DNA from: a virus
Lineage: Duplodnaviria; Caudoviricetes
Strand: one strand, 5' to 3'
Virus record (IMG/VR): IMGVR_UViG_3300047159_000046
DNA length: 64,000 nucleotides
Shown: positions 5,276-23,697 of the stretch, one piece after another
Position numbering within the stretch: the first letter of the stretch is position 1
How the letters are laid out: each line of letters starts with the position of its first letter
Notes under the pieces: generated by a model
What the model saw: only the letters and a program-made list of their open reading frames with translations
What the model was told of the DNA's origin: nothing
The model's database searches: none
Made by a program: the position numbers and the translations under genes

Positions 5276-6231
5276 AAAACTTAACTTTTTACACAACAAA
5301 AAAACAGAATAGTTTTTTGCTATTCTGCTTTTTTATATCTTTTTATATCCTACTTTTAAAAAAGTCGACATAATCTGCCCACTCTTTGAAATTTCGGGTT
5401 TTTTCGTAATCTTGTTTGGAAAGCCGTTTTTTAACTTAGGTGAAATAGTCACCGCCAATCCTATAATCGGCGACAACATAAAAACCCCTTTTGTCCTTGT
5501 TAAAAACCATACAGAGGCACTCAAATTCTTGTTTCATACTACAAAACCGCTTTTTCAACCACCAGCAGTAGGTTCTAAGTTCATTTTCAATACACAAAGA
5601 TAACATAAAAATCTGATACTACCAAATTTTTACCTATCTTTTTTTGGGGTTTTTATATTTCGTTGTTGTATGTAATTGCGTGCGACTTTATAAGCAATAA
5701 CCAACACCAAAAATTTGGTATCACCGCCAAAACCATCCAGACCTCGAAATTGAAGTCTTCATTTGCCCATAACAAGCAACGGACAAATGAAGAATGTCAT
5801 AAACCCGTATGCGAATACAGAAGAAATACGACAAAAACTCTTTCATGAACTTTATAATTTTTAGTAGTACGTAGGGACTATTCCCAAACGCACTACAAAG
5901 ATAAGCCGTTTTTTAGATATATCCAAATATTTTGCCGATTATTTTCAATCTTTTTTTATTGTCCTTTTTGTGTGTGTTTGAATATCCTACAATAACACAC
6001 AATAACGAAAGAAACGGCAAATAAGGCACTTTAATTGCGTTTTGAGGGACTTTTGTATGAAATACGGGTAAACTAACTACAACGGGTCAATAATGCGCTT
6101 AAAACGCTTTAAAATGAATATCCGACAATTCCAAACATTCAGGAGAATTTTAACATACTTTAACATTTTTGAATACGGGTAAAAAAATAGGACTACTTTT
6201 TGTGTAGTCCTATTTTATTTTGTTTTATGAT

Positions 6232-6652
6232 TTAGCCTAAAATTTTTGTTTCTCCGCCATCTACCATATACTCAAAATGTTCTTCATTTGTGTCTATACT
6301 CCAAACGGGTGTATAATATGTAAAAAATCTGTTCACCGTTTGGATAAAAGTATGATAAATATGCCTCTTTTGCATTGTTTAGGATATGTAGTTCCCTATA
6401 TCTGTTAGAGCTATTTTTTCTAAACTCGCCGTTTTTCTTGATGTTTTTGCCATATAGCCACAAAACGCCTTTCACCATCTGCACATTGGTCAATTTGATA
6501 GGCAGAATATCAGCAATTAAATTGCTTATTTCCTTTTCATTTTCCTTACTCTTGTTCATTCTGTTTTTCAGTAACAAAATTTGCTTTTCAGTGGCAAAAC
6601 CTTGTTCTTTAATTGTTGCTACTAATTCTGCATTTGAAATTGTTTTTGCCAT
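6232..6652 (-). pseudogene. Family A early protein (ATEKQI/KKNGEFRKNS) with a single frameshift
   Basis: Paralogue of 12861 and 13434; the C-terminus YYTPVWSIDTNEEHFEY...KILG continues in another frame. Confidence 0.7.
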
Positions 6653-6814
6653 AATACTAATTTTTTTTAATGTTTAAATGTTTTGTTTGTTCCCTTGAAC
6701 AATGCAAAGATACAAATAAAGTTCGGAAAAACAATAGCAAAAGTGTTAAAAATTTAATTATTTTTTTAACACTTTTTGTTTGGTATTGTCGGCAAAAAAC
6801 GTTACCTTTGTAGT

Positions 6815-6984
6815 GTAATTAAAAAAGCAACAATATGTAAAACTAAAAGCCACACTCAACAAGGCAAAACGACAACGGGAAACGGCATCACACCCGATTG
6901 ACAAATAAGGCGGTCGAACAATACGAAATAGGTGTTATAAAGTTACTATTTTGGGAAGGAGGAGACAAAACACGCACTTTTTTT
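6815..6984 (+). ncRNA. Structured ncRNA family, copy 1 (mini-ORF reduced to ATG-TAA)
   Basis: Promoter TACCTTTG at 6803; conserved hairpins; 3' T-tract. Confidence 0.75.
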
Positions 6985-7182
6985 AAAAGTTAAAAAGTGT
7001 TAATTTTTTCCTGCGAACGAAAGTTTGGGGTGTCATACAAAGTTACGAATTTTTTGGGACTTTTCCAAATAAAAAGTGTTAAAATTCTGTTAAAAAATCG
7101 CCTGAAATTTTAACATATTTTAACGAAAAAAAAAACGGGCTCTCCATTTGGAAAACCCGTTTTTTGTTTATGTTAATTTCTG

Positions 7183-7533
7183 TTAAATCCCAATACGTTT
7201 TTCTATTGCTTTTTGCAAATCTGCATTATACCAATCCCGTGCCTTTCCTACAAAAAACGCTTTCATGGTATCAAAGTTTTTAAAATTAGCTTTTATGCCG
7301 TCCGTTATGATATTATTAAAATCGGACTCGTCTTGTGAATGTTTCCCACCCCAATCACGGATATCCCGTAGTTTTTGGTATGTTTCATACAACTTATAAT
7401 AAAATGTTTCACGTGAAACATTTAGTCGTAGCTGAGGTGCTTTATTTTGCCTCTTTTTAAAGTCTTCGGGTAAAAAATAATTGAACATCAAAAGGGAAAA
7501 TCTTTCATTAATCGATAAATTTTCAGTATTCAT
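7183..7533 (-). CDS. Hypothetical protein; gene contains a parS site
   Basis: ORF with its own promoter and terminator; the NVSRET peptide is encoded by the parS palindrome. Confidence 0.7.
   Translation of the reverse strand: MNTENLSINERFSLLMFNYFLPEDFKKRQNKAPQLRLNVSRETFYYKLYETYQKLRDIRDWGGKHSQDESDFNNIITDGIKANFKNFDTMKAFFVGKARDWYNADLQKAIEKRIGI
7405..7420. promoter_or_regulatory. parS: parS site (TGTTTCACGTGAAACA)
   Basis: Perfect 16-bp match to the conserved chromosomal ParB-binding palindrome. Confidence 0.85.
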
Positions 7534-7676
7534 AATAACTTTATTTTAGTAGTACGTTGGGACTATTCCCAAACGCAAAACAAAGGTACAAAATGTTTTT
7601 TGAATAAACAAGAAAAAAAGTGAATATTTTATTAGGATATTCACTTTTTTTGTTTATAGGTTTTTTATATATATTA

Positions 7677-8114
7677 TTATATAGCTGCTGTTTGGGCTCT
7701 TTCTGTCTCCTCAACATCTACCAATGTATTCTTTTTGAGGTCGTTAAAAAGTTCGTCACAAAATTTAACGGACCTCAAAATATTATATCCAAAATAATGA
7801 TATAAGGAACTTTTCCTTTTTTCTAATCTTGTCGCAAATTCATTTCTATATCTATCAGCCTTTTCCAAATCGGCAAGGGTCAATGTTTTATTTTTATCAT
7901 ATAGTTGGGCTGCCCAACATACCATCTCGGTGAATGTTTCACGTGAAACATTTTCATCAAAAATCAAATAGGGTGGTATTTCCTCTGTTGGTACGTTGTC
8001 GCAAAAAGAGGACAACATATTGATGCTGAATTGCATATACTTTGCATACTCAGCATATTCACCCATGTTCATTACACCCTTGTTTGCCCACTTCTCAAAT
8101 CTGCTTAGTTTCAT
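7677..8114 (-). CDS. Hypothetical protein; gene contains a parS site
   Basis: ORF with promoter; contains the NVSRET peptide. Confidence 0.7.
   Translation of the reverse strand: MKLSRFEKWANKGVMNMGEYAEYAKYMQFSINMLSSFCDNVPTEEIPPYLIFDENVSRETFTEMVCWAAQLYDKNKTLTLADLEKADRYRNEFATRLEKRKSSLYHYFGYNILRSVKFCDELFNDLKKNTLVDVEETERAQTAAI
7935..7950. promoter_or_regulatory. parS: parS site (TGTTTCACGTGAAACA)
   Basis: Second perfect 16-bp palindrome, 530 bp from the first. Confidence 0.85.
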
Positions 8115-8466
8115 AACTTTTGTTTTTAGTAGTTCGGCACTATTGCCGTTTGATTATGCCACAAAGATAGACCAAATAAACCATATATCCAAATATTTTA
8201 TCAATTATTTTCAATTTATTTTCAATTCTTTTCTGCTTGCACCCGTGCGTGCGGATACTGAATTTGGTATCGGCTAAATTTAGCTGTTTTTAGCCCCACT
8301 ACGACACTTTCGGGTAAAAGTGGATAAAACTATTCACTTTCCACACAAAACGCTTTAAAATCGCTTAAAATAGCTTGTGTTGCGTTTCTTGATATAGTTG
8401 ATACACACAAAAAACGGCAAGAACATTCTGTTTGTCCTTGCCGTTTCTGTTATGATGTTGTATTCT

Positions 8467-8880
8467 TTATTCTGTTTCTTCCATCTCCAATTCATTTACC
8501 TTGTCCCAATATTCATTCAGTAAATTTTGGGCTTTTGCTATTGTTATTTTGTTGTTTTTTATAAACATTGAATATAGTCCCCAAAAAGCCAATTCTTGTA
8601 TATCTATTTTTTCTGTATTCTCTATATTTGTATTATACGCATTCACGCAAAATTGCAAATTTCCAGATACATAGGAAATTGCAAACTCTTTTGAGTCGCT
8701 GCAATCCATGCACCTGCGCTCTGCCTCTTCCCATGCCAATTGACTATAGTCGCATAGGTAGTTGGCATTCTTTATGCCGTTTTCCAGACCTTCTGTTATT
8801 GTGTTTATATCTGCATATATAGATATAAAAACCTCTGAAATCTGTTTTGCATAGCTGTTTGTCAATTCTGTCTTGTTCAT
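8467..8880 (-). CDS. Family B acidic early protein
   Basis: Paralogue of 15781..16188 (MNKxELT..YA, NLQFC, EYWxKVNELE). Confidence 0.8.
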   Translation of the reverse strand: MNKTELTNSYAKQISEVFISIYADINTITEGLENGIKNANYLCDYSQLAWEEAERRCMDCSDSKEFAISYVSGNLQFCVNAYNTNIENTEKIDIQELAFWGLYSMFIKNNKITIAKAQNLLNEYWDKVNELEMEETE

Positions 8881-9059
8881 AATGTTTAATGTTTTATTGT
8901 TTTTGTTGATGCAAAGTTACAAATAAAATCGGGAAAAGCAAGAGCAAAAGTGTTAAAAATAAAAAGATCTTTTTAACACTTTTTGTTTGGAAAAGTCCCG
9001 AAAATTTCGTAACTTTGTATGACACCCTAAACCGAAAAAATTAACACTTTTTAACTTTT

Positions 9060-9240
9060 AAAAAAAGTGCGTGTTTTGTCTCCTCCTTCCCAAAATAGTA
9101 ACTTTATAACACCTATTTCGTATTGTTCGTCCGCCTTATTTGTCAATCGGGTGTGATGCCGTTTCCCGTTTTCTTTTTGCCTTGTTTTGTGTGGCTGTTA
9201 GTTTATGTTGTATTCATATTGTTTGTTGTTTCTTAATTGC
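9060..9240 (-). ncRNA. Structured ncRNA family, copy 2 (mini-ORF MNTT*)
   Basis: Promoter TATCTTTG at 9245-9252; homologous to copy 1. Confidence 0.75.
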
Positions 9241-9345
9241 ACTACAAAGATACAAAAAAATTTTGAACTACCAAACAAAAAGCAAAAAAAAATTCAAAAA
9301 CCTAAAAAGATTTTTGAATTTTTATTGTCGTGAAATATTGCTACA

Positions 9346-9629
9346 TTATATCAATGTTATATCACTTATCTCCGATAAAAAGATACTTTCTGTGTCGTTT
9401 CCATGTTTTACATATAGTTCATAATTAGTGCCATATTTATCGCTTGGTAGTGACCGCAAACGCAATAAATGTATATCAGTGACTACCATCACAATATCAT
9501 TTTTATTTCGTCAACTACAATTCTTGTCGGCACATCATAATTGTTGCCTTTTAGATATTCAACTATTTTAACATACATTTTCTGATGTTCTCTGCGCTCT
9601 GTGCGCTCAACTTCTGTTTCGTTGTTCAT
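9346..9629 (-). pseudogene. Family E early protein, frameshifted
   Basis: Pieces (NNYDVPTRIV, DKYGTNYEL, SDITLI) match 16307..16657. Confidence 0.55.
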
Positions 9630-9961
9630 AACTTTTTGTTTTTAATTAATAATGTTCGTTATTTTCACTTGCAAAGATACAAAAGATTTTTGATATACCA
9701 AACTTTTTTGCCGTTTTTTTTGCGGTTTTTTTATAAATTTTCGTTTTGTATCAGTATATCAGTCATATATCTTTTTATCTGATTGAGGGTCATATTATCA
9801 AAATCAACATATTTTAACAATATTCTATGTTCGCTTTTGCCGTGCTTTAACCCGTAGCACTTTTTTAGACGGCAAATATTTCATTACAAAAGAGTCTCCT
9901 TTCTCCATATCGAAAATAAACCCTCTTTTTTCATCATAGCGCAAATTTTTGATATAGTTAA

Positions 9962-10234
9962 TCATAGTATGTTGCTCCTTTCCTCAATTTCTTCCAAACA
10001 TTTGGAAAGTGTTTTGTGCCCCAAATTAGGCATATTTAACGTTTCGTAGGGCACACCCGTTGTTTGTCCGTTTACATCAATTATACAAACATTATAATCA
10101 AGATATTTTTCCATCAACCCTATTTCCACTATAATATAGTGGCTCTTGCTGATAGTCGCAATCAGCGTGATTATTGGGGCTTGTGGTATCGTTTCTATAT
10201 GATACCTTTTTGCGACCTTGTATGTATGTTTCAT
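9962..10234 (-). CDS. Hypothetical early protein
   Basis: AAAGTTATG start downstream of a promoter at ~10292. Confidence 0.65.
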   Translation of the reverse strand: MKHTYKVAKRYHIETIPQAPIITLIATISKSHYIIVEIGLMEKYLDYNVCIIDVNGQTTGVPYETLNMPNLGHKTLSKCLEEIEERSNIL

Positions 10235-10601
10235 AACTTTATACGCTTTTTGTAACCATCAGCGTTAGGCTCTTGTTCGTTATTGTTGATGCAAAGATAT
10301 AGCTAAAAATTGATATATCCAAACATTTTTGCAATTATTTTCAATTTATTTTCTGTTTCTTTCTGCTTGCACCCGTGCGTGCGGATACTGAATTTGGTAT
10401 CGGCTAAATTTAGCCGTTTTTAGCCTTGATACGACACTTTCGGACAAAAGTGGATAAACTATTTATCTTTCACACAAAAACGCTTTAAAACGCTTTAAAA
10501 TAGCTTGTATTGCGTTTCTTAATATAGTTGATGCACACAAAAAAACGGCAAGAACATTCTGTTTGTGTCCTTGCCGTTTCTGTTATTGTGTTGTGTTTGT
10601 G

Positions 10602-11033
10602 TTATTCCAATACGCTGAACATTTTTGAGTCCCTTATATCTCTGATATTTTTGGCGTATTTAAGTACTTTAAACGCTTTTGTAATTGTCTCAATATCCTT
10701 TTTATCGATATTTCCGCAATATTGATATATCACTTCGCTATCATTAAATTTCATACGCAAAGTTTCATACGACAAATTTATTTTTATCATATTATATCCA
10801 TATCCATCATAAATCACCTCAAATTCTCCTCTGCTTTTTGAGGTTGTAAGGGATATATCAGTGCAATATTTTATTTCTTGTAACTGAGTCGGGACTGCAT
10901 AAGTCTCTTTTGAAATGTTCTTTAATAAACCTTTCAAAATTCTTACATCGTCTTTTTTTGTGGTAGTCTTGATAAACTTTTTGTTCAAAAGACCATCATT
11001 CAGTTTCAAATAAGAAAAATTTAGCTGTTTCAT
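10602..11033 (-). CDS. Family C early protein
   Basis: Paralogue of 11667..12101 (RGEFxxxYDG, QYC). Confidence 0.8.
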   Translation of the reverse strand: MKQLNFSYLKLNDGLLNKKFIKTTTKKDDVRILKGLLKNISKETYAVPTQLQEIKYCTDISLTTSKSRGEFEVIYDGYGYNMIKINLSYETLRMKFNDSEVIYQYCGNIDKKDIETITKAFKVLKYAKNIRDIRDSKMFSVLE

Positions 11034-11220
11034 AACTTTAATAATTTAATTAGTATTTCTGTTTGTTGATGCAAAGTTACAAATAAAGTCGGGAAAAACA
11101 ATAGCAAAAGTGTTAAAAATTTAATTATTTTTTTAACACTTTTTGTTTGGAAAAGTCCCAAAAATTCCGTAACTTTGTATGGTGCTCTAAACCGAAAGTT
11201 TTAACACTTTTTAACTTTTT

Positions 11221-11400
11221 AAAAAAGTGCGTGTTTTGTCTCCTTCTTCCCAGAATAGTAACTTTGTAACACCTATTCCGTATTGTTCGTCCACCTTATT
11301 TTTGGTTAGGGTGTGATGCCGTTTCCCTAAATGTTTTTGCCTTGTTGAGTGTGGCTGTTTGTTTATGTTGTATTCATATTGTTTGTTGTTTCTTAATTGC
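11221..11400 (-). ncRNA. Structured ncRNA family, copy 3
   Basis: Compensatory stem TAGGG/CCCTA replaces CGGG/CCCG; MNTT* mini-ORF. Confidence 0.75.
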
Positions 11401-11666
11401 ACTACAAAGATAGTCATTATTTTTGATATATGCAAATTTTCAACCAATTATTTTCAAATTATTTTACGTTTCGTTTTTACCCGTTTTTAGCCTCAATACG
11501 GAACTTTCGGGTAAAAGTGGATAAAACTATTCACCTTTCACACAAAACGCTTTAAAAACGCTTAAAATAGCTTGTATTGCGTTTGCTGGTAGTTCTTGAT
11601 GCACACAAAAAAAAACGACAAGAACATTTTGTTTGCCCTTGTCGTTTCTGTTATTATGTTTGTTCT

Positions 11667-12101
11667 TTATTGTAGTACGTTGAACATTAATGAATTTCGT
11701 GCGTCTTGTAGTGTTTGTATATCTTTCAATATGCCAAATACTTTTATCATTATTTCTACATCATGTTTATTGATATGGCTGCAATATTGCGACAATATTT
11801 CTCCGCCGTTGTATTCTATTCTCAAAATGCCATGGGAAAGATTTATGATTATTTGGTTGTCCTCAAAACCATCATAAAAAATCTTAAATTCACCTCTTCC
11901 CTTTGTCGCTTTTAGGGATATATCTTTTCCTATCTTTATTTCTTGTACCTCAACTGGGACACAATTTGTAGCCTTTTTGATGCCCTTTAAAAGGCTTTTC
12001 AAGATAGACAAACATTCTGTGTCTGCTATATCGTTTATAAGCAAATTCTTGTTCAAAAAACCCTCTTTTAGGTGCATACATGAAAAACTCAATCTGTTCA
12101 T
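11667..12101 (-). CDS. Family C early protein
   Basis: Paralogue of 10602..11033. Confidence 0.8.
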   Translation of the reverse strand: MNRLSFSCMHLKEGFLNKNLLINDIADTECLSILKSLLKGIKKATNCVPVEVQEIKIGKDISLKATKGRGEFKIFYDGFEDNQIIINLSHGILRIEYNGGEILSQYCSHINKHDVEIMIKVFGILKDIQTLQDARNSLMFNVLQ

Positions 12102-12309
12102 AACTTTAATGTTTAATTAGTAATTTTGTTTGTTGATGCAAAGATATATCTTTTTTCTTAATCTGCAAAATGTTTTGGGACTTTTTTTGAAAATATTTTA
12201 TGTTCGTATCTTTATGTACTGATACACAAAAAATAGCCGACTTTCACAAGCCGACTATTTCGCATTAAACATTAAATTAGAAATACAAAAATCATTATAT
12301 CATTCTGTT

Positions 12310-12627
12310 TCATTCCGTTTGTTCGCATAGTTCCGTTTGTTCCATTGGTATGCCTACATAATCTTTGTAACAAGCTATATTTTTGTAATAGTCATATTCG
12401 TCTACTACGTTGTCAATCAGTGGTAACCATTGCCCGTAATATTGATTTTCGGGCATCTCTGTATCAATTTCCTCTTCCCGATATGAAATATATCCATCAA
12501 ACAATTCCATAACACAGGTGGGGTCTATCTCAAAACTATTCAAATAGTCCCTTGCAAAAAGAGAATTGAGGGTTATTTCGTTTCTAAGTTTGCCGAATTC
12601 CTCTAATGTTAAAAATCTGTTTGCCAT
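12310..12627 (-). CDS. Family D acidic early protein
   Basis: Paralogue of 22793..23143 (LRxExxxNSL..DYxN..ID..FDxYI). Confidence 0.75.
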   Translation of the reverse strand: MANRFLTLEEFGKLRNEITLNSLFARDYLNSFEIDPTCVMELFDGYISYREEEIDTEMPENQYYGQWLPLIDNVVDEYDYYKNIACYKDYVGIPMEQTELCEQTE

Positions 12628-12860
12628 AACTTTGTTTTTTTAGTTAGTATAATATGTTCTTGTTGTCTTTCAACGCTACAAAGGTAGTTCTTATTTTTGA
12701 TATATGCAAATTTTCAACCAATTATTTTCAATATTTTTTTTATTTTGCTTTTCACGCATACATAAGGCGGATACTGATTTTAGTACCAAGCCGTTTGTAC
12801 TACACAAAAAAAATAGGGCTGCCCTTGTTGAGTAGTCCTATTCTGTTTTGTTTTGCGTTT

Positions 12861-13271
12861 TTAACCTATTATTTTAATATTATTAGCACCAATAATGTAT
12901 TGAAAACCCATAGAATGCGAAAATAAGTCATAAACACAATCATGGTAGGAATTACCATACGCATAAAACGACTTCAAATACAAATATTTTGGATGAGTGA
13001 CAACATATTCATCTTTAATCCCCAAAATACAATTTTTACGACAATCGCCATTTTTTTTGAAATTCTTATCATAAATCCACTTAGCAGCCTTGTTCTTTTG
13101 CTCTTCTGTTAATCGAATAGGCATAACACTATCAAGCAAATTAAACATTTCAGAGGCACTTTCATCGCTTTTGTTTATTCTCCTTTTAATTAGATTTATT
13201 TGCTGTTCAGTCGCAAAGCCTTGTTTCTTGATAGTTTTTACTAATTCAGAATTGCTAATCATTTTTGCCAT
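12861..13271 (-). CDS. Family A early protein
   Basis: MAKxISNxELV..QGFATExQI; paralogue of 6232 and 13434. Confidence 0.8.
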   Translation of the reverse strand: MAKMISNSELVKTIKKQGFATEQQINLIKRRINKSDESASEMFNLLDSVMPIRLTEEQKNKAAKWIYDKNFKKNGDCRKNCILGIKDEYVVTHPKYLYLKSFYAYGNSYHDCVYDLFSHSMGFQYIIGANNIKIIG

Positions 13272-13433
13272 AACTTTTATGTTTTGTTGTTTTTGTTAAT
13301 GCAAAGATACAAAGAAAGTTCGGGAAAACAATAGCAAAAGTGTTAAAATTTCAAAGATCTTTTTAACACTTTTCCAAACACACAAAAATAGGGCTGCCCT
13401 TGTTGAGTAGTCCTATTCTGTTTTGTTTTGCGT

Positions 13434-13859
13434 TTATCCTACTATTTTCGTTTTGCCGTCTTGTTCCATATAATCAAAATATTCTTCATTTTCTGTCTCA
13501 ATACGCCAAACGGGTGTGTATTTGTTGTCTCCTTTGGTATAAAAGCAAGAAAGATAAGCCTCTTTTGCGTTGTTGAGGATATGTAGTTCCCTATTTCCCA
13601 AAGGACTATTTTTTCTAAATTCTCCGTTCTTCTTGATACTCTTGCCATACAAAGATAAAACCATCTTGACCATCTGCATATTGGTCACTTTAATTGACCA
13701 TGGCATTATCTCTGATATATATCCAAGAATTTTCTTTGCGTCTTGCTGATTTTTGTTCATTCTTTGTCTCAGCAACCTTATTTGTTTTTCAGTTGCGCAC
13801 ATATCTTGATGTCTGCTTATTTTCAACCATAAATCATAATTTTCAATTTTCTGTTTCAT
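13434..13859 (-). CDS. Family A early protein
   Basis: ATEKQI and KKNGEFRKNS motifs; start trimmed to MKQKIE. Confidence 0.8.
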   Translation of the reverse strand: MKQKIENYDLWLKISRHQDMCATEKQIRLLRQRMNKNQQDAKKILGYISEIMPWSIKVTNMQMVKMVLSLYGKSIKKNGEFRKNSPLGNRELHILNNAKEAYLSCFYTKGDNKYTPVWRIETENEEYFDYMEQDGKTKIVG

Positions 13860-14021
13860 AACCTTTAATGTTTTGTTGTTTTTGTTGATGCAAAGATACA
13901 AATAATGTTTGAAAAAGCAATAGCAAAAGTGTTAAAATTTCAAAGATCTTTTTAACACTTTTCGCTTAAAATAAATGCCCAAAAGTTTTGCATATTACAG
14001 ATTTTTGCGTATCTTTGTAGT

Positions 14022-14199
14022 GTAATTAAGAAAGCAACAAATATGAATACAACGTAAACTAAAAAGCCACACAAAACAAGGCAAAGATAAAACGGGAAAA
14101 GGCATCGCACCCGATTGACAAAAAGCGGACGAACAATACGAAATAGGTGTTACAAAGTTACTATTTTGGGAAGGAGAAGACAACACACGCACTTTTTTT
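14022..14199 (+). ncRNA. Structured ncRNA family, copy 4
   Basis: Promoter TATCTTTG at 14010; ATG AAT ACA ACG TAA at 14043. Confidence 0.75.
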
Positions 14200-14494
14200 A
14201 AAAGTTAAAAAGTGTTAAAACGTTCATACGAATGGACAGTTTTGGGTGTCATACAAAGTTACGAAAAATTTGGGACTTTTCCAAACAAAAAGTGTTAAAG
14301 TTTTACTTTAAATTATTCACACTAATTAACACTGTTTTAACACTTTAGATTTAAAGTGTCATACAAAGTTACAGAATTTTTTTGAAAAAAACAAACAAAA
14401 AGTGTTAAATTTCTCCTGAACTTTTTAACATTTTTTAACAAAAAAAACGGGTTCTCCGCTTGGAAAACCCGTTTTTCGTTTATGTTAATTTATG

Positions 14495-14831
14495 TTACTT
14501 ATTATACAACAATATCTTGATATATGTTTGTGCGCTGTCTGTGCAATCCCAAAATGATACTACCACCCCACTATCAGATAAATCAAACGGGTGTACCAAA
14601 TTTTCGTTCATTTCGTCCGCACTGCTATCTTGATTGGCGGGACACACCTCAAAATCGTAGTATGTTTTGTCCTCTGCATTTTGAATTAAAAAATGCCTCA
14701 ATTCGTCATTTATTATAGTCTCATTTATTTGCGTTTGCGACTGCGTCATATAATAAAAAGCGACCTCACAACTATCATTTCTGCTCAATTAAGTTAATAA
14801 ACTTTCTTGCACTGATTTTTGTTTTATTCAT
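14495..14831 (-). pseudogene. Hypothetical early protein with a frameshift near the N-terminus
   Basis: MNKTKISARKF... joins NDSCEVAF if one A is removed at ~14780. Confidence 0.55.
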
Positions 14832-14965
14832 AACTTGTATAATTTAATTAATATTGTTTTGTTGTCTTTCAACACTTGCAAAGATACTACTTTTTTTTAA
14901 TATACCAAACTTTTTTGCAAAAAAAATAAGAACTATTTTGTAGTTCTTATATATCTGTCTGAAAA

Positions 14966-15421
14966 TCAGAAATTAGGGTCTCTATAATTTTCGCAATAGT
15001 TGAACATAAAAATAGGGTTAAAAGATGTTCCACCCGTCTTTTCTGTTGGTCGCCATCTATTGTAAGAAAATTTAAAAGTTATTTCCCTTGCTGATAGAAT
15101 AGGAAATCCGTCATCGTCACAGTCCGTTATCGTGATAGTCTTTTTCTTTTCATTAAAAGCCAAAATCCTAAATGCGTACCTATCACTTCCGACAACTTCC
15201 GTGACGCATCCACCCAATTTTGGTGTTCTACCTTTTTCCCACTCCGAAAAACGCTTTTTCACCTCATCTATTTCTTTTTGAGAATAAAACCATTTTTTGT
15301 AAGTGTATTTCCCAAACGGGCAAGAAAATGACACTTTTGCCTCACGCTTTTTCATTCCATGCTCAATTTTCTTCCAATCTGAAAGAAATTCAATAACCGC
15401 TCCGCTTTTTGTGTTTGTCAT
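14966..15421 (-). CDS. Conserved phage hypothetical protein (GSDRYA...YxDPxF)
   Basis: Motifs typical of a common phage family; own promoter and terminator. Confidence 0.75.
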   Translation of the reverse strand: MTNTKSGAVIEFLSDWKKIEHGMKKREAKVSFSCPFGKYTYKKWFYSQKEIDEVKKRFSEWEKGRTPKLGGCVTEVVGSDRYAFRILAFNEKKKTITITDCDDDGFPILSAREITFKFSYNRWRPTEKTGGTSFNPIFMFNYCENYRDPNF

Positions 15422-15780
15422 AACTTTATTGTTTTTAGTTATTAATATTAATTATTGTATTTCAACACCGCAAAGATACAAAAGTTTTTGATAACTGCAA
15501 AACTTTTATCAATTATTTTCAAAGTTTTTTCTGTTTGCGTATGTGCGTGCGAGTACTGAATTTGGTATCGGCTGTTTGAGGCTGTTTTGAGCCACAATAC
15601 GGCACTTTCGGGTAAAAGTGGATAAAACTATTCACTTTTCACACAAAACGCTTTAAGGACGCTTAAAACAACTTGTATTGCGTTTTTTGATATAGTTGAT
15701 GAACATACACACACAAAAAAAACGGCAAGAACATTTTGTTTGTCCTTGCCGTTTCCGTTATTGAGTTTGTGTCCCGTTAT

Positions 15781-16188
15781 TTATTCTTCTTCCAACTCAT
15801 TGACCTTTGCCCAATATTCATCCAATAATTTTTGGGCTTTTGGCATCACAGAAGCAATATAGTTTTCTTCTTGTTGCATCTTTCCCCAATATGCCAAATC
15901 GTCAATCTCAATACAATTTTTTGAGTCGTGCTCATAACTATTTTCGTTGTAAGCATCAATACAAAATTGTAAATTGTTTTTGACAAAATCAAATTCCAAA
16001 TTTGGGTCACTTGATGAAATCATACAATCTGCATCGTCCGCTGCAATTTGATTAAAATCACAAAGTTCATCAGCGGTGACCTCACCCTCTTTCATACTGT
16101 CTGCAATATCGCCAGCATATACATCAATATCCTCAAATAAAGATGAAATACTCATTGCATACTTGTCTGTCAATTCTTGTTTGTTCAT
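15781..16188 (-). CDS. Family B acidic early protein
   Basis: Paralogue of 8467..8880. Confidence 0.8.
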   Translation of the reverse strand: MNKQELTDKYAMSISSLFEDIDVYAGDIADSMKEGEVTADELCDFNQIAADDADCMISSSDPNLEFDFVKNNLQFCIDAYNENSYEHDSKNCIEIDDLAYWGKMQQEENYIASVMPKAQKLLDEYWAKVNELEEE

Positions 16189-16306
16189 AACCTTAAATTT
16201 TAGTTTTGTTGTTTTACACTTGCAAAGATACGAAAGATTTTTGAACTACCAAACGTTTTTGCAAAAAAAAATAAAAAATATTTTAGTGCTGATTATGTAT
16301 CTAATT

Positions 16307-16657
16307 TCAAATCAGCGTAATATCCTCTAATTGACTAAGATAAAAACATTCTTCTTTTGTATTGTGCATCAATATTAATTCGTAATTTTGTCCATAACCA
16401 TCTTGTTTCAACGGGACAACTCGCAAAGATAATGTTTCGATGTTCCCTATAATCTTGATACCATCCGCATTGTTTTTCATTTTCAACACAATACGGGAAG
16501 GAAAAGCATAATTATTTGTTTGCATATAGTCCGTTATCTTTGTTTGCATCCTTTCGATATTTTCCCTAAGTTCCAAATTGGCATTGTGTTCTATTGCCTT
16601 TTTTTCAATATACTGCTCCAAAGGCATATCGGCTTCGTTTCTGATAAAACTACTCAT
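16307..16657 (-). CDS. Family E early protein
   Basis: Intact ORF with promoter; paralogue of 9346..9629. Confidence 0.75.
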   Translation of the reverse strand: MSSFIRNEADMPLEQYIEKKAIEHNANLELRENIERMQTKITDYMQTNNYAFPSRIVLKMKNNADGIKIIGNIETLSLRVVPLKQDGYGQNYELILMHNTKEECFYLSQLEDITLI

Positions 16658-16986
16658 AACCTTGTTATTTAATTTTTGATACGCAAAGATACAAAAGATT
16701 TTTGAACTACCAAACTTTTTTGCAGATTATTTTGATGTTATTCTGTTCTCGCACATATAAGGCGGATACTGATTTTGGTATTCACCCGTTTTTACCCGTT
16801 TATTTGCGTTCTAACGAACTTTCGTATCAAAGTGGTACAAACTATCAACTACTATCAACAAAAGTCCTATAAATAGCTTCTATGCTATCATTTCGGCAAA
16901 TAAGTAGGCACACAAAAATAGCCGACTTTCACAAGCCGACTATTCTACTACTAATCTACTAAAAAGTTATGAATTGAAAAATATCT

Positions 16987-17889
16987 TTAATATATAAAAT
17001 GCACTTGTTCATCATTGTTGAATTCACACAAACAATTCTCGATGAAAAGTTTTTTGTCTTTTATTTCCAACTTCTTTATTTCAGAATATGCCCTAACTGC
17101 ATTTTCAGAGCAAATGATAACTTGTTTTGGCATCCCCTTTTCGTTGATAAGACTAATAAAATGCGTAGTTCTATCATTGAACTTTGCCTTTTGTGTCAAA
17201 TCATCCAAATAGTCTTCCAAACAATCAATAGGAACTGACTCATTATGATTAGTCGTATCTATTAGTATGTGTTCGGTACAATTATATTTGCAACTAATCT
17301 GTGCGGATATGATATCGTCTTTTGTGTCAATTATCCAACATTCGTCATCGTGAATCTGAATAAATCTCATTTCTCCGTCACTTGTTTTTTTCTTACAAGG
17401 ATACACACAATCAGCATTAATATGCATAATGATTTTATTTGCCTTAATATCCAATATGTTAGAGTTCCATATACAATGGTCACTTCCAACTTTTCTCGGG
17501 ATAAATTTGTTTTTTCCAAATCTATCAATGATATTATTTCATCGCCTCTATCATAGGAGAAAAGATTTTCAGATATATCTGTTATTGAATAAAACATAGA
17601 TACGTTATCTATATCCTCGCTAACTTTTTTTCCGTTACGCAAAAGAACTTCTTTATGACCATTTCCCAAATATTCGAATTCCAAAATAGCCATATCGTCA
17701 TTTTCTATCGTATTATGATATTTTAGCATTACGTTATCTATTGCTATTCTTGTATCAAATACAAGGTTACATTCTCCCGTTATTGCGTTCATATACAATA
17801 CGTTTGTATTTCCATCAACACTTCACTACATATAATGTATTTGTAAGCTGTTTCTTGATGTTCTGTGAAAAATCTGTTGCTGTTTTCAT
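16987..17889 (-). pseudogene. Hypothetical protein split by two frameshifts
   Basis: ORFs 17367..17798 and 16987..17454 overlap out of frame; likely start MKTATDF at 17889; C-terminal half resembles 23740-24130. Confidence 0.55.
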
Positions 17890-18047
17890 ATTTACTTTTG
17901 TTTTTAGTTTTGTTATTTATTTACACTTGCAAAGATACAACTTTATTTTGATATACCAAACTATTTGCTGATTATTTTTACAAAAAAAATAGCCTACAAT
18001 TTTTTTACAAATTGCAGACTATTCTAACCAAAAACTATTTTAAAACA

Positions 18048-19070
18048 TTAGTAAATAAATCGCACGCTTACAATATCAATATCATTTATTTCGCAAATAG
18101 TCGTTCTAATTTCATTTCCGTATTCACAAGACAACGTTCCCGAAACCGCTGATATGCCAGCCCAATGGATATCTTTATACGCACTAACAAAATGCTGTTT
18201 TGTCTTGACAATAATCTGAATAGGACACCCTTTTGTTGAAAGCAAATCATTCAGTTCGTCAAATAGAAAATTGTTGTCGTTGTCGTTTGCCCTCACTATA
18301 CATTCTTCTTTATCCTTGTTCATAAGGGTAACAATATCATATAGTTCATCAGTCCTATAATCTTTTGCGTTTATCGTCACCTTGTCTTGCAACTCAATAT
18401 GATTAGGCTGATATTCACATGGGAAGCCGCCACCTTTCTCCTTGTTGTTTTTATCTACCAAATAGATAGTTTCCGAGTCTACAATAAGGATGCTAAAATC
18501 ATTTTCGTTCTCTATGTTCTCAAAACGCAAATAATCAACACTTTCACTCAATAACCATTTGTCTGTATTTACATTCCAAACGTTATAATAAACTTCGTTG
18601 TCCTTATTCTCCATTCTGATAGCATACAAATTTTTCCAATGATACATAATTGTACGTTCCTCTGAGCCATTCCAAAAAGGAATTACATTTGTATTTCCGT
18701 TGATATCTACAATATCTCTTGTTTCGTCAAATCTTTCAATCTGATAGTAATTCTGTGAATTTGTGACCAACTGGAAAAAACATTCTCTTTTATGATTTTC
18801 AGTGACCACCTCACTGCCTTTTAAAATCATATATCCATAAAGACCATCCAACTCTCTATCAATGATAGCCGCTTCGCCACTATTATACACAAATTTGATT
18901 TCCTCATCAGAGGCTTGGTCGTCATCAAAAACCAACTCTCCGTTTTGGGAATTTGTGTCCCTCATAAAAAACACATTATACTTGTTGTCTTTTTTTACCA
19001 CTGCAAAGTGGTTAGATACAACCTTTGCGTTATCGAACGCTGCCAATGACTCAATGTTTTTTGTTTGCAT
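18048..19070 (-). CDS. Hypothetical beta-rich protein (possibly WG-repeat-like)
   Basis: 340-aa ORF; AVVKKDNKYNVF and YYNVWNVNTDKWLLS segments. Confidence 0.75.
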   Translation of the reverse strand: MQTKNIESLAAFDNAKVVSNHFAVVKKDNKYNVFFMRDTNSQNGELVFDDDQASDEEIKFVYNSGEAAIIDRELDGLYGYMILKGSEVVTENHKRECFFQLVTNSQNYYQIERFDETRDIVDINGNTNVIPFWNGSEERTIMYHWKNLYAIRMENKDNEVYYNVWNVNTDKWLLSESVDYLRFENIENENDFSILIVDSETIYLVDKNNKEKGGGFPCEYQPNHIELQDKVTINAKDYRTDELYDIVTLMNKDKEECIVRANDNDNNFLFDELNDLLSTKGCPIQIIVKTKQHFVSAYKDIHWAGISAVSGTLSCEYGNEIRTTICEINDIDIVSVRFIY

Positions 19071-19476
19071 AACTCTATTTTTTTTAATTTAGTAATATTG
19101 TTTATTTCCTTTAACGCTACAAAGATACATCTTTTATTTTGAACTACCAAACTTTTTGCAGATTATTTTTGAATTATTTTATCCGACTTGATGGTATGTT
19201 CCTATCTTTGTTGATGCAAAGGTACAAACAAAATACGACAAAAGCAATAGCAAAAGTGTTAAAAAAAACATTGATCTTTTAACACTTTTTTCTTGTTTTT
19301 ATCCAAAATTTTCCGTAACTTTGTATGGTGCGCAATTTTGGAATGTTAATGAAAGTTAAAATCTGCAAAGAAAAATACCTCGAAAATTTAACGTTTTTTG
19401 TTTGGAAAAGTCCCGAAAATTTCGTAACTTTGCATGACACCCTAAACCGAACAAATTAACACTTTTTAACTTTTTT

Positions 19477-19671
19477 AAAAAAGTGCGTGTTTTGTCTCCT
19501 TCTTCCCAGAATAGTAACTTTGTAACACCTATTCCGTATTGTTCGTCCGACTTTTTTATTTGTTCGGGTGTGATGCCTTCTCCCGAAATATCTTTGCCTT
19601 GTTGAGTGTGGCTTTTAGTTTATGTTGTGTTCATCTTATTTACGTTTTTAGTTTAACTTGTTTCCTTTAAC
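19477..19671 (-). ncRNA. Structured ncRNA family, copy 5
   Basis: ATG AAC ACA ACA TAA; TTCGGG/CCCGAA and GGAATAG/CTATTCT stems. Confidence 0.75.
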
Positions 19672-19775
19672 ACTACAAAGATACAATTTATTCTTGACAA
19701 TACCAAACATAGGGACAAAAAAATAAGAACTATTTTCGTAGTTCTTATTTTCTTTATTGTTATATGTTTTGCTTG

Positions 19776-20966
19776 TTATTGCTCATCCTCAGTTTTGATA
19801 GTAGCTTTCAGACAATACATATCATTAAGTTCATCTATAATTGTCATAAACATACATTTTGAAGAACGTACCTCACAAACAATATCCACATATTTAGAGT
19901 TGATAAGTTCCAAAGTTTTTTGCACCCCTACATTCATTATACATTCATTTGTGTTGTCGTTTGTCCCACCGCACTCAATATTTGCGTTGAAAGATATTAC
20001 GTCTTTGTCCTCGCACTCTCCGAAAAGTCTCAAAGTATGATTTTCAAAACGAAATATTTGTTTATCATATTCATAAATCATTTTGTTTTGTACCTTGATT
20101 TTGTTAATCAAATCCGACTTGTCAATATGAGTGTATGTATTTGTATCGTCAATTTTTTTAGGGAAGAACGACAATACGTCTTGAATACCTCTCGCAATTA
20201 ATTGTTTGTGTTCCAAATTTACAGAAACATTGTTTTTGTATAAAAAGGTGATAGAAAAATCGCTTTGATATTGCGCATCTTTTGCCGACACAGCACTGAT
20301 ATTTAAACCAATACATTCTTTATTGTCTGCATACTCAATGATATTTTCAGTAACCTCTAATGGCAAGGCAAAATCGTTTTTCAGAATTGCGGTTTTGTTG
20401 TCAATAGTTGAAACATTCACATTCACAATTGTGTTGTCGTTTGTAGCCAATAATTGCAAAAGGTCATTATCATTCAGTACCACCATATCGGGATGGTTTA
20501 TAAAGCGGTTGCTTTGTTGTAACGCTTTCGCTTTCTTGATACAGCCGACAAACGTATCTACAATCCACTTTCCATCCAAACTTAGCTGATTATCTGCAAA
20601 TAGATATTTATTGACATCAAATTCGCCACACTGCATATCTGCATCAACATTGTTTTGATACAGACTCAAAACCCATGTTTGTTCTCCGTTTGAAACATAC
20701 AGCTTGTCGTCACCCTTTGTTTCCAACATCAATTCATTATTGCTTGTCGTTTTGATTTTGTTCAGTTCCCGTGCGGATATTTGAACCTTGCCCTTGTCGT
20801 CCTCAATATCTGCGGATATGGCTGAAAAACCATACCACAAATTCTCAATAACACATTTATTGTCGGTCTTGTTGCAACTCAATGCAATAATGTTATTTAC
20901 TTTGTTGTCGGCTGAAAAAAGATTGACAACCTTTTTGAAATTTTCTACACTTACTTTTGCTTTCAT
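19776..20966 (-). CDS. Degenerate DNA polymerase III beta-clamp-like protein
   Basis: Clamp-like size, adjacent to a dnaN-like gene; LLATNDNTIV sits where ATDxHxL is expected. Confidence 0.5.
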   Translation of the reverse strand: MKAKVSVENFKKVVNLFSADNKVNNIIALSCNKTDNKCVIENLWYGFSAISADIEDDKGKVQISARELNKIKTTSNNELMLETKGDDKLYVSNGEQTWVLSLYQNNVDADMQCGEFDVNKYLFADNQLSLDGKWIVDTFVGCIKKAKALQQSNRFINHPDMVVLNDNDLLQLLATNDNTIVNVNVSTIDNKTAILKNDFALPLEVTENIIEYADNKECIGLNISAVSAKDAQYQSDFSITFLYKNNVSVNLEHKQLIARGIQDVLSFFPKKIDDTNTYTHIDKSDLINKIKVQNKMIYEYDKQIFRFENHTLRLFGECEDKDVISFNANIECGGTNDNTNECIMNVGVQKTLELINSKYVDIVCEVRSSKCMFMTIIDELNDMYCLKATIKTEDEQ

Positions 20967-21128
20967 AACTTTAACTTTTAATTTGGTTTTGTTTTACACT
21001 ACAAAGATACAAATAATATTGATAACTGCAAACTTTTCACACAATTATTTTCAATTTATTTAAAAAAAAGCTATCAGCAACATAATAGTCACTGATAGCC
21101 TCAATTTTAAAAGGATATAAAAATATGA

Positions 21129-22292
21129 TTAATTTGCGTACTTGTTATTCAGATAGCAAGGCATCAACATTGCAAAATCTATCTTTTCACCCTCAATACA
21201 TACGGCTCTGTTTGAATAGGACATATTCAATTTGATGTTTGATTTTTTAGGATATGAACTTACAATTTGATTTAATGCTTTCAAAGTGAAACGTATCTGA
21301 TATTCTCCTATTTCATTGTTTAGAATAGGTACGTTTGTGGACTTTTGATTTTCATCCGCAATATTGCTGATTCTTAAATTGTTGTCTGCAATATCGAAAG
21401 TAAGTTGATGGTCATCCAAATTTTTGTCGGTATATCCTTTTAATGCTTTCAAAAGCGCATCAACACTCAAAGTGATACTCTTTGTGTCGTCCTTTGGTAT
21501 TACCAATTCCACGTTTGGAAAATGTTCGTTTGCATCAACAAGAATACTATATGATAACAATTCTGTTTCTCCGTCATAAATCGTGAACACAAAATTTTCT
21601 GTATCTCTTTTGTCCACTGCAATACGGCTAATTTCCATTCGGTCGTATTTGTCAAATTTGGTGATAAGTTTGCATACTTGATTAGGTATTGTTATTTCTT
21701 TGTAGTCCTCATCCAAAGAAACGCTCTCAATATCATTTATCGCCAACACATGGGCATCAGTGGCGGTCATCTTTATCTTTTCGTCCTTTGCTCTGAAAAT
21801 ATCAACACAACACATTATAGGTCGGCTCATATCGTCCGAAACATACGAAGAAAAAAATGTTTTTATTTTGTCGCTCAATTCGGCATCTTTGATAGTACAA
21901 ACACTTTGGCTGATTTTGTCCTCTGCCAATATTTTAAAATGATTGATGTTACCAATTTTTATCTGCATATTCTCTGATTCCATATCCAATATTTCATCAT
22001 ACATACGCATATTAACTTCGGACTTGTTTGATAGAGCCGATACAAAATCATACAATGTATCAAAACCTATCACGGCATCCAAAATGTTTGAATTGGCATC
22101 CAACTCACATTTTGCCGTATTCAAGATATATCTTGCATTGTCTTTGCGGTCTTGCAAACGACAAACGCCATCTTTGTCTATAATCAGTTCACATTCTTTT
22201 GCCTCTTTGTTATTGTTGTCTTTCAACACAATATTCAAAGATTTTACTGCGCTTTTCAACTCCTTTGAAGAAATTTTTACACTTGTTGTCAT
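21129..22292 (-). CDS. dnaN: DNA polymerase III beta sliding clamp homologue
   Basis: SDDMSRPIMCCV, MTATDAHVLA, FPNVELVIP and C-terminal MLMP motifs; 387 aa. Confidence 0.85.
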   Translation of the reverse strand: MTTSVKISSKELKSAVKSLNIVLKDNNNKEAKECELIIDKDGVCRLQDRKDNARYILNTAKCELDANSNILDAVIGFDTLYDFVSALSNKSEVNMRMYDEILDMESENMQIKIGNINHFKILAEDKISQSVCTIKDAELSDKIKTFFSSYVSDDMSRPIMCCVDIFRAKDEKIKMTATDAHVLAINDIESVSLDEDYKEITIPNQVCKLITKFDKYDRMEISRIAVDKRDTENFVFTIYDGETELLSYSILVDANEHFPNVELVIPKDDTKSITLSVDALLKALKGYTDKNLDDHQLTFDIADNNLRISNIADENQKSTNVPILNNEIGEYQIRFTLKALNQIVSSYPKKSNIKLNMSYSNRAVCIEGEKIDFAMLMPCYLNNKYAN

Positions 22293-22470
22293 AACTTTTT
22301 TATTTAGTTTATAATGTTTATTTGTTGTCTTTCAACACAGCAAAGATACATATAATTTTTGATATACCAAACTATTTGCTGATTTTTTTTGAATTAAAAT
22401 GAAAAAATAAAGTTTTCAACAATTAATAAAATTTAACTTAAAAAACTTGCATTGTTCATAACAATTTTTT

Positions 22471-22662
22471 AAAAAAGTGCGTGTGTTGTCTTCTCCTTCC
22501 CAGCATGATAACTTTATAACACTCATGACGTATCGTTCTACCACCTTTTTGTTTGTTCGGGTGTGATGCCGTTTCCCGAAATATCTTTGCCTTTTTGTGT
22601 GGCTGTTAGTTTATGTTGTGTTCATATCGTTTGTGTTTTTAGTTTAACTTGTTTCCTTTAAC
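22471..22662 (-). ncRNA. Structured ncRNA family, copy 6 (most diverged)
   Basis: Stem CATGA/TCATG replaces AATAG/CTATT around the same loop; MNTT* mini-ORF. Confidence 0.75.
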
Positions 22663-22792
22663 ACTACAAAGATACGCATAAATTTATACACTTCCAAATC
22701 TTTTGCAGATTATTTTCAAGAATATTTTAAACACAAAAAAGCGTACGACTTTCACAAGCCATACGCTCCCGTAATTAAAACAACAAACTAAA

Positions 22793-23143
22793 CTAAAAAT
22801 CAAAAGCTATGTATTTTTCGGCAATTTCTGCTTCCCGTATTGTTTCTTTGTCGCAATTAAGGAACATATCATTGTCGGAAGGTGCAATCTGTCTGTAAAA
22901 GTCAATCAGAGCGTTGTCATTGTCGTAATCTACTATCACGTCATACATATCAACACTTGATATATCAACTCCGTCCGCCACGGCATACTCGATGAGGCTT
23001 TCTATGTATCTATCAAAAAAGCGTTTTGTCTTTTCTGCATCTATGTTCAAAGTGTTTCTATAATCAGAAACGTCCAATGAATTGATAACGACCTCTCTCC
23101 GTAATTGTTTCAATTCTGCCGATGTCATATTTCTTTTTGCCAT
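22793..23143 (-). CDS. Family D acidic early protein
   Basis: Paralogue of 12310..12627. Confidence 0.75.
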   Translation of the reverse strand: MAKRNMTSAELKQLRREVVINSLDVSDYRNTLNIDAEKTKRFFDRYIESLIEYAVADGVDISSVDMYDVIVDYDNDNALIDFYRQIAPSDNDMFLNCDKETIREAEIAEKYIAFDF

Positions 23144-23220
23144 AATGATAATGTTTTTTGTATGTATTCTAAATTTATTGTTGTCGCACCCGTATATGTA
23201 CGGGTACTGAAATTAGTATG

Positions 23221-23697
23221 TTATAATATATCTGAGGGTTGCATTTCGTTCATCACAATAATCTTTGCAAATAGCTGTTTTGTCTTAACAAGCGTGATAT
23301 CCTTTTGATAAAATACATACCTATCTTTGATAGTGTAAACCTTGTCTCCGATATGTACCGCAAAACGGGTGAGGAAATCTTTGCCTTTTGAGGTTTCTAT
23401 ATTGTCTATTTTGCCACAAATAGCCATCCAATCCTTGTCGGCTAATGAGGTGATTTTGATATAGTTTCCACACTCGCCACCCCTTGGCGCATCATTTCCC
23501 GTTTCGTACTTGATATTCATTTCTTGCAATAAGGACAAATACTTGTTGGTATTGTTGATATTGCGTGAGTGTCTGCCATTGTGTCGGCATGATACGGGAC
23601 GGAATATCCCGTTTGACAAACCAAGCACCCAATTATGGATATCTTGATATACGTTGTCGTTTTTGGTGATGTGCAACTTCTTTGCTGCATCAATCAT
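23221..23697 (-). CDS. Hypothetical protein (GNDAPRGG motif)
   Basis: 158-aa ORF; start uncertain. Confidence 0.65.
   Translation of the reverse strand: MIDAAKKLHITKNDNVYQDIHNWVLGLSNGIFRPVSCRHNGRHSRNINNTNKYLSLLQEMNIKYETGNDAPRGGECGNYIKITSLADKDWMAICGKIDNIETSKGKDFLTRFAVHIGDKVYTIKDRYVFYQKDITLVKTKQLFAKIIVMNEMQPSDIL

Follow-up and report, generated by a model that had tools for sequence, protein, structure and literature searches.

A multi-copy element of a Bacteroidetes-type phage is probably a new family of phage small RNAs

We find that a 64,000-nucleotide stretch of DNA from a virus of the Caudoviricetes (IMG/VR record IMGVR_UViG_3300047159_000046; the whole stretch is hereafter called the window) carries six copies of an element that is probably a new family of phage small RNAs, the mechanism that we propose for it being inferred from the sequence. 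An earlier note, made from the letters of the window alone, had drawn attention to this element; its observation is confirmed and its interpretation is partly supported. The reading that we favour, at a probability of about one half, is that the copies are paralogous, stand-alone small RNA (sRNA) units, each transcribed from a sense promoter, which would act via the loops of two hairpins, P2 and P3, and would use a very short open reading frame (mini-ORF) for the loading of a ribosome.

Results

Six copies behind a Bacteroidetes-type promoter

Repeat search, six-way alignment and a search with a profile built from the six (E 1e-58 to 1e-73) agree that the window holds exactly six copies, c1 to c6 (Table 1), which are 75-96% identical pairwise and lie where the earlier note had placed them. 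The number of copies thus stands, whereas the extent of 170-195 nt once given for the repeat does not, since in c1-c5 the repeated unit measures ~330 nt, running on for ~100 nt into a convergent promoter module. The 3' end of c6 is unlike the others, consisting of a hairpin ATTGTT/AACAAT and GCAAGTTTTTTA, without the convergent module.

All six copies lie directly behind TTTG-N19-21-TA(T/C)CTTTG, the Bacteroidetes -33/-7 form of promoter, so that the promoter postulated before each copy is complete in 6/6. An extended form of the motif, TAnCTTTGTAGTG, recurs at ~10 other places in the window. Together with sixteen relatives from activated-sludge and wastewater metagenomes the copies make 22 distinct variants, and the -7 box is present in 22/22, but the variants were collected in a way that ensures the box; the upstream TTTG (17-23 nt) was scored for the window copies only. 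Between the -7 box and the ATG lies a leader of 24-41 nt, A-rich (0.60-0.65) and without a Shine-Dalgarno (SD) sequence, which is within the range of 25 real phage genes (22-52 nt; mean A 0.57). The leader of c5 carries a 16-nt insertion with GTGTTAA at the start site.

A mini-ORF that keeps its frame

The mini-ORF reads ATG TAA in c1 and ATG AAT/AAC ACA ACA/ACG TAA in c2-c6, just as had been described before (MNTT* in five copies with synonymous changes, start-stop in one). Over the 22 variants it takes the forms M*, MNTT* and MNSNTT* (1, 4 and 6 codons), the stop always being UAA-A. Its indels are only two, minus 9 nt or plus 6 nt, both of which keep the frame, and its substitutions are all synonymous (AAT/AAC, ACA/ACG); the alignment gap of c1-type copies amounts to a net 8 nt, as such copies hold an extra A right after the stop. 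Indels outside the mini-ORF are of 1, 2 or 16 nt. Small as the sample is, this pattern fits selection on the reading frame and not on the peptide, because the M* form makes no peptide. The opening ATGAA(T/C)AC resembles the starts of several real genes, and because of this likeness the 5' part of the element may descend from a gene start. The small genes of the region (starts at, e.g., 8114, 11033, 12101, 13271, 15421, 19070, 20966, 22292) have AAAGTT-ATG or ..ATT-ATG after an A-rich leader, a start context that is absent from the mini-ORF.

No shared ORF of more than six codons was found when the six copies were compared in all six frames on both strands. The open stretches in the copies differ in frame and length, and the common one is the ORF of 1-6 codons only, which agrees with the earlier statement that no long ORF is conserved. 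A longer ORF via stop-codon recoding is rejected because the frame after MNTT* holds TAA, TGA and TAG.

Two hairpins with changing stems and fixed loops

The mini-ORF is followed by an A/C-rich, G-poor spacer that includes GCC...GGC, then by P2, a CGGG/CCCG stem with a 13-nt loop that holds GGCATCRCA, and by P3, a CGAAATAG/CTATTTTG stem with the 14-nt loop GTGTTAYAAAGTTA. P2 occurs as CGGG/CCCG with a bulged AA/UU extension, as TTCGGG/CCCGAA (c5, c6) and as TAGGG/CCCTA (c3), P3 as GAAATAG/CTATTTT, GGAATAG/CTATTCT and GTCATGA/TCATGCT, the last with one U-C mismatch. Within the window GGCATCRCA and GTGTTAYAAAGTTA are fixed, as the earlier description of nearly fixed loops had it, whereas divergence elsewhere in the element reaches 25%; the relatives add one T>G variant in the P3 loop.

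Pairs were counted on an alignment of 18 sequences (A2) under a three-helix model. In this model 91.4% of cells pair, versus 29.6-45.7% with the 3' partner slid by 1-3 columns; in P2 and P3 together six pairs vary on both sides and none on one side only. The covariation score is matched by 0/500 shuffles, and RNAalifold independently recovers P2 and P3. The GCC/GGC stem, P1, is invariant in A2, and one later relative outside A2 has G>T on its 5' side. Of the three covarying stems proposed at the outset, P2 and P3 are therefore upheld by their six two-sided pairs, and the GCC/GGC stem is neither supported nor refuted, because it never varies in A2. Base pairs that appear to be kept by compensatory changes, here in few events and among close kin, are a generic mark of a structured RNA. 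A single genome holds several stem forms side by side, each of them compensated, and therefore a folded nucleic acid is favoured over a site read by one DNA-binding protein. By prediction, the RNA is mostly single-stranded and A/C-rich, with two short hairpins and a terminator.

Pairing of the P3-loop GUGUU with a downstream AACAC or with the P2 ACACC was considered and dropped, the T>G loop variant being uncompensated in a by-eye check. A complementary target for the loops was not found in the 64-kb window, and a search with 10-mers complementary to the RNA yields, outside the copies and the TTAACAC motif, no more than isolated, dispersed matches.

The 3' end and the choice of strand

Just before the terminator lies a purine tract, GGGAAGGAGGAGAC (GGGAAGGAGGAGA). 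The terminator-like end is a 9-bp AU hairpin, GCACUUUUU/AAAAAGUGU, and then UAAUUUUUU; the T-tract reported earlier is thus present, not alone but belonging to this hairpin. In c1-c5 the convergent module's transcript and the sense RNA would run into each other at the AU hairpin, which they share. Read in antisense, the P3 loop together with the purine tract spells TTTG-N20-TAACTTT(G/A), a promoter-like site that is incomplete in c4, which has no -33 TTTG, and in c1, c2 and c6, which have no final -7 G, c6 also being without the -33.

Sequence features favour the sense strand, because its promoter alone is intact in all variants, because it has a message-like leader and an ATG, and because a G-U pair in P3 would turn into an A-C mismatch if the RNA were the antisense one. 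The choice is less clear-cut than the earlier note claimed, given the antisense site in the P3 loop and the convergent promoter module. That note had taken the G-U pair to identify the transcribed strand; the pair itself is real (A2 columns 150/177), yet as proof of the strand it is weak, because both columns are invariant.

The module is also found by itself. At 4555-5275 (+) seven tandem promoter modules of ~110 bp (TTAACACTTTTT, TTTG, N20, TAACTTTG) are each followed by GTTAA-type motifs, and some of them then by a hairpin GCTATTTT...AAAATAGC, with no credible ORF after them. Single or double copies of this module face element copies 1-5.

A stand-alone unit in a mosaic region

Neither c1 nor c4 has a co-oriented gene downstream; both point toward genes in convergent orientation and toward strong terminators. 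As for c2, c3, c5 and c6, the genes that follow them are served by TAnnTTTG promoters of their own. Because of these two arrangements it is supported, from the gene order, that the element is a stand-alone unit and not a leader or attenuator of a downstream gene. Its neighbours encode small proteins without a known family and, next to c6, a sliding-clamp-like protein.

Shuffled cassettes make up the region like a patchwork, among them a 2.16-kb tandem unit and a family of paralogous small genes. Related strains, in which cassettes of 1-2 kb have been shuffled, have 4 or at least 5 copies of the element, partly in different places, so that the amplification of dose proposed earlier is only a possible reading of the copy number. 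One 25-kb contig (UOYA01001441; compared with window 8468-11476) holds four copies and is without the c2 and c3 units, and in another strain the c2 unit is relocated (L066:8712-9562 versus window 8866-9711). Because of this mosaicism, conservation of the element relative to its flanks is mixed. In some pairs of strains the element is better kept than the flanks (98.6% versus 88.8%, 95.0% versus 85.6%), and in others it is worse (88-90% versus 97-98%), the segment having been replaced from another copy.

Relatives and database searches

A metagenome scan yielded 14 loci in activated-sludge and bioreactor assemblies, and further contigs were reached via a neighbouring protein. Look-ups of sequencing runs locate the phage in wastewater and bioreactor-sludge samples of at least 13 studies. 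All variants are from close relatives of one phage, with proteins 90-97% identical: the clamp-like protein forms a single 97%-identical cluster, and a 396-aa neighbour has relatives at 90-93% only. The alignment accordingly has a depth limited to ~25% divergence, distant relatives not having been reached.

Rfam 15 gives 0 covariance-model matches in the whole window, and at E<=5 the 12 weak matches over 4000-24000 all fall outside the copies, in line with the earlier view that the element is of no described family. ARAGORN finds 0 tRNA or tmRNA genes in the window, blastn against INPHARED gives no match, four pattern scans of IMG/VR give 0 matches and one scan with the clamp-like protein gives no relatives. 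The two-loop pattern has 0 matches in 185,579 species genomes of GTDB. A looser 19-mer of P2 has 51 scattered matches there, against a rough chance estimate of ~35; we take them as chance because none extends beyond the seed. No bacterial homologue of the element, as a mimic of a host RNA or of a repeat of the clustered regularly interspaced short palindromic repeats (CRISPR) would have, was found in the GTDB genomes, and similarity to CRISPR repeats, ToxI or 6S RNA was not found. The polymerase decoy and the ToxI or CRISPR-repeat mimic suggested earlier find no support here, and P2 has no host homologue in GTDB. On its sequence, the element matches no described family, and in kind it probably belongs with the phage small RNA genes.

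Table 1. Coordinates of the element copies and of associated promoters in the window
Feature	Position	Strand	Details
c1	6815-7010	+	predicted RNA, ~5-8 nt past -7 box to U-tract
c1 sense promoter	6779-6810	+	TTTG 6779-6782, 20-nt spacer, TACCTTTG 6803-6810
c1 mini-ORF	6835-6840	+	ATG-TAA
c1 P2	6876-6879 / 6893-6896		CGGG / CCCG, loop 6880-6892
c1 P3	6924-6931 / 6946-6953		CGAAATAG / CTATTTTG, loop GTGTTATAAAGTTA 6932-6945
c1 purine tract	6953-6966		GGGAAGGAGGAGAC
c1 AU hairpin	6974-6982 / 6992-7000		T-tract 7004-7009
Convergent promoter module facing c1	7012-7086	-	TTAACACTTTTT-TTTG-N20-TAACTTTG, box 7038-7045
c2	9034-9240	-	MNTT* mini-ORF from 9217; -7 box 9245-9252(-)
c3	11194-11400	-	P2 TAGGG/CCCTA, P3 GGAATAG/CTATTCT; -7 box 11405-11412(-)
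c3 complete antisense promoter	box 11259-11266	+	TTTG-N20-TAACTTTG
c4	14022-14225	+	synonymous ACG codon, loop GGCATCGCA; -7 box 14010-14017(+)
c5	19449-19671	-	P2 TTCGGG/CCCGAA; -7 box 19676-19683(-); antisense box 19515-19522(+)
c6	22439-22662	-	P3 CATGA/TCATG; -7 box 22667-22674(-)
Equivalent module boxes	9010-9017, 11170-11177, 14254-14261, 14364-14371, 19425-19432, 19316-19323	+, +, -, -, +, +	

Other features of the window

The motif TTAACAC is observed 39 times, versus ~14 expected, with 38 of the occurrences in 4-23 kb, often as palindromic pairs just upstream of promoters (e.g. 6743-6776), and it resembles a binding site or an UP-like element peculiar to the small-gene region. TTAACACTTTT has 28 occurrences, all within 4.5-19.5 kb.

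A second non-coding repeat family lies on the minus strand at 8150-8470, 10280-10600, 11400-11670, 15450-15775 and 16680-16990. Each member consists of a strong terminator, ~190 nt with an invariant hairpin core CCACTTT...CGAAAGT, and the next promoter; CCACTTTTACCCGAAAGTG is present in 3/5 copies, and the mean column identity is 74% (alignment A3). Possible paralogous small genes of 122-155 aa, also on the minus strand, lie at 6284-6652, 8467-8880, 10602-11033, 12861-13271 and 13434-13901. They are grouped because their promoters and 5' ends resemble one another (repeat families D2, D11, D16), their proteins not having been compared, and each adjoins a copy of the element or a promoter module. 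Pfam gives no significant match for the four small genes tested, with one sub-threshold match to DUF7750 for 12861-13271, and PHROGs gives no match for the three tested.

Within the first 24.5 kb GGAGG occurs in c1 and c2 only, and 24500-64000 holds 65 occurrences. An SD-like motif lies upstream of only 3/42 larger genes, which fits a host of the Bacteroidia. Between 4 and 26 kb the GC content is 31-34%, between 26 and 36 kb it is 40-43%. At 56710-58320 (-) a 536-aa protein has a Cas12f1-like TNB domain (TnpB-like; Pfam E 2e-16).

Discussion

The element is situated in what appears to be a host-promoter-driven, presumed early, region of small genes of a Bacteroidetes-type phage. In the mechanism that we propose, host RNA polymerase would start at the sense TTTG/TAnCTTTG promoter and make an RNA of ~190-215 nt that would end at the AU hairpin and U-tract. 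The product would act as RNA and not via a peptide, because the M* form has none. The mini-ORF would briefly load a ribosome on the 5' end, and this loading may stabilise the RNA, shield it from Rho and RNases, or hold the ribosome. The invariant loops of P2 and P3 could be what a protein or RNA partner recognises, and the several copies would provide a high dose soon after infection.

Several observations weigh against this proposal. The independent compensatory events number ~4-5, not the 35 cells counted, and there are only three forms of P3 and three of P2. Whole stem forms swap between orthologous loci, the c4 and c1 orthologues in UOYA01001441 bearing a c6-type P3, and since such forms move between loci by recombination, counts of sequences overstate the support from covariation. 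Against shuffles, the fold of c2 is not significant (z -0.57) and that of c5 is modest (z -2.30). The ATG of the element is without the (A/G)TT that stands just upstream of the start in most of the 25 tabulated genes. In c3 and c5 the element contains a complete antisense promoter, and the convergent module faces c1-c5. The known members all belong to a single phage lineage and are at least 75% identical.

In libraries of RNA, contigs from three metatranscriptome runs (X15-X17) cover genes and spacers alike, without strand or ends; their depth peaks at 8919-9132, which is the most repeated segment, depth being summed over copies and strains. One run searched as raw reads (X22) has 0 reads on the locus.

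A question arises, is the unit a source of RNA at all, or does it work as DNA? It may be a cis-acting transcription unit, in which face-to-face promoters surround a bidirectional AU hairpin studded with TTAACAC and the RNA is a by-product; such a unit could serve as an insulator between neighbouring cassettes, be a sink for polymerase or a TTAACAC-binding factor, or tune its neighbours by transcriptional interference. This is possible, though we hold it to be unlikely. The ~330-nt repeat of c1-c5 takes in the convergent module, which also forms, alone and without an ORF, the 7-fold array at 4555-5275; TTAACACTTTT lies also inside the terminator hairpin of the element, and other non-coding repeat families fill the region. 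However, a DNA site for one protein should stay constant, yet P2 and P3 vary in both arms at once and their forms coexist, the indels of the mini-ORF keep its frame, and c6 has the element without the module. Mosaicism suggests a further alternative, that the element is a neutral or selfish repeat, a remnant of the 5' end of a gene, spread by duplication of cassettes and kept similar by gene conversion. Several real genes do start with ATGAA(T/C)A.. (MN.., e.g. 7533, 8880, 31042), the copies are mosaic, units move between strains, and identity between strains is sometimes below that of the flanks. Gene conversion, in turn, leaves unexplained the three compensated P3 forms and the fixed loops beside variable stems, and in other pairs of strains the element is far above its flanks; we therefore regard a neutral repeat as improbable.

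It is likewise improbable, on what the copies display, that the functional RNA is the antisense one, a ~75-nt RNA that would run from the promoter-like site in the P3 loop to the P2 hairpin and a U-run, or a read-through from the module, and that could regulate the sense transcript. TTTG-N20-TAACTTTG is complete in c3 and c5, the P2 hairpin in c2 and c4 is followed by TTTTCTTTTT or TTTTATCTTT, and the covariation of the hairpins, G-U pairs aside, fits both strands equally. Against it, the key -7 G is A in 12/18 of the A2 variants, the -33 is GTTG in many and only some copies have both boxes, c3, c5 and c6 have lost the U-run that follows P2, the invariant G-U of P3 would be an A-C mismatch, and in c5 the antisense fold is no better than shuffles (z +0.65). 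A toxic minigene in the manner of lambda bar, in which release of peptidyl-tRNA would tie up tRNA-Thr, tRNA-Asn or a release factor and slow host translation, is very unlikely. The start-stop form of c1 and its orthologues has no elongator tRNA to sequester, the conserved downstream hairpins and loops would be unexplained, and the toxicity of bar reportedly needs a host defective in Pth. Nevertheless, the element has an ORF of 1-6 codons that is kept in frame and always ends in UAA-A, in several copies each with a strong-looking promoter, and minigenes of 3-8 codons do sequester tRNA as peptidyl-tRNA (PMC2490762). Least credible to us is a primer of the origin type, a purine-rich RNA whose persistent R-loop would prime replication. 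For this speak a strongly purine- and A-rich sense strand that carries GGGAAGGAGGAGA and the sliding-clamp-like gene that adjoins c6. The cumulative GC skew, however, keeps a steady course over 4-24 kb and reverses only around 36 kb, at the flip in gene direction; copies dispersed over six sites, and in both orientations, are unlike a single origin, and the fixed hairpin loops would remain unexplained.

A more specific form of the sRNA reading concerns the ribosomes of the host. Bacteroidia ribosomes normally mask their anti-SD behind bS21 (PMC7797042, PMC9976891). The RNA might then be a ribosome-engaging molecule tuned to these ribosomes, with two handles, and might trap or sort a sub-population of them, an idea that we regard as a long shot. 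The A-rich leader without an SD, together with its ORF of start, 0-5 codons and stop, would be one handle, loadable by ordinary Bacteroidia ribosomes; the other would be the AAGGAGG-type purine tract, visible only to ribosomes with an unmasked, bS21-free anti-SD. Early and in multiple copies, such an RNA would shift translation toward phage messages.

Among known systems, layouts close to that of the element are found in type I toxin-antitoxin pairs such as par/fst and txpA/ratA, in which an RNA of ~200 nt and a short transcript converge on one bidirectional terminator hairpin, used by both. The likeness is one of layout alone: no conserved toxin ORF of ~20-60 aa was found on either strand of the element, and its hydrophobic antisense readings shift frame between copies, unlike a type I toxin. 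To 6S RNA and other polymerase decoys, ToxI and CRISPR-repeat mimics the element is similar as a small RNA proposed to titrate a protein, and its P3 loop, read in antisense, resembles a -7 promoter box. In most copies, however, this box is TAACTTTA, without the key G, which weakens the likeness to a decoy; in contrast to 6S RNA, the element has no Rfam 6S match and no long bulged helix, and in contrast to ToxI and CRISPR-repeat mimics it has neither tandem 36-nt repeats nor a repeat-spacer context. As regards mimics of host RNAs, the GTDB genomes are without a homologue of its P2 hairpin. The bacterial start-stop cases known from retapamulin ribosome profiling reportedly sit in the leaders of genes that they regulate, whereas the element is without such a downstream gene. 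In common with the start-stop sites so profiled, c1 and its orthologues have ATG-TAA behind a translation-type leader (bioRxiv 10.1101/520783). Lambda bar and synthetic toxic minigenes (PMC2490762) share with the element a very short, phage-carried ORF followed by A-rich sequence and potentially highly transcribed; the element differs in that it has no SD, as fits the A-rich leaders of Bacteroidia, in its one bare start-stop form and in its conserved, structured 3' domain. The closest kind is that of phage-encoded small regulatory RNAs, which are promoter-to-terminator units without a long ORF (PMC12197685). The element shares with them a short stand-alone unit, a host-type promoter, a terminator-like end, hairpins and the lack of a protein product. 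It differs from them in its four to six dispersed paralogues per genome and its 5' mini-ORF, in having neither a complementary target in the window nor an Rfam match of sequence or structure, and in being known here from sequence alone.

Should the element be only a spacer maintained by recombination, it would serve as a warning that covariation over few mosaic paralogues can mislead. We know of hardly any small RNAs from phages that infect Bacteroidetes, and a multi-copy, host-promoter-driven unit that combines a start-stop-type mini-ORF with fixed-loop hairpins is a concrete and clonable candidate. The region appears to be built from shuffled cassettes of promoters, RNAs and terminators, which matters for the annotation of such genomes, and the element could serve the study of how phages use RNA in a host that initiates translation without Shine-Dalgarno pairing.

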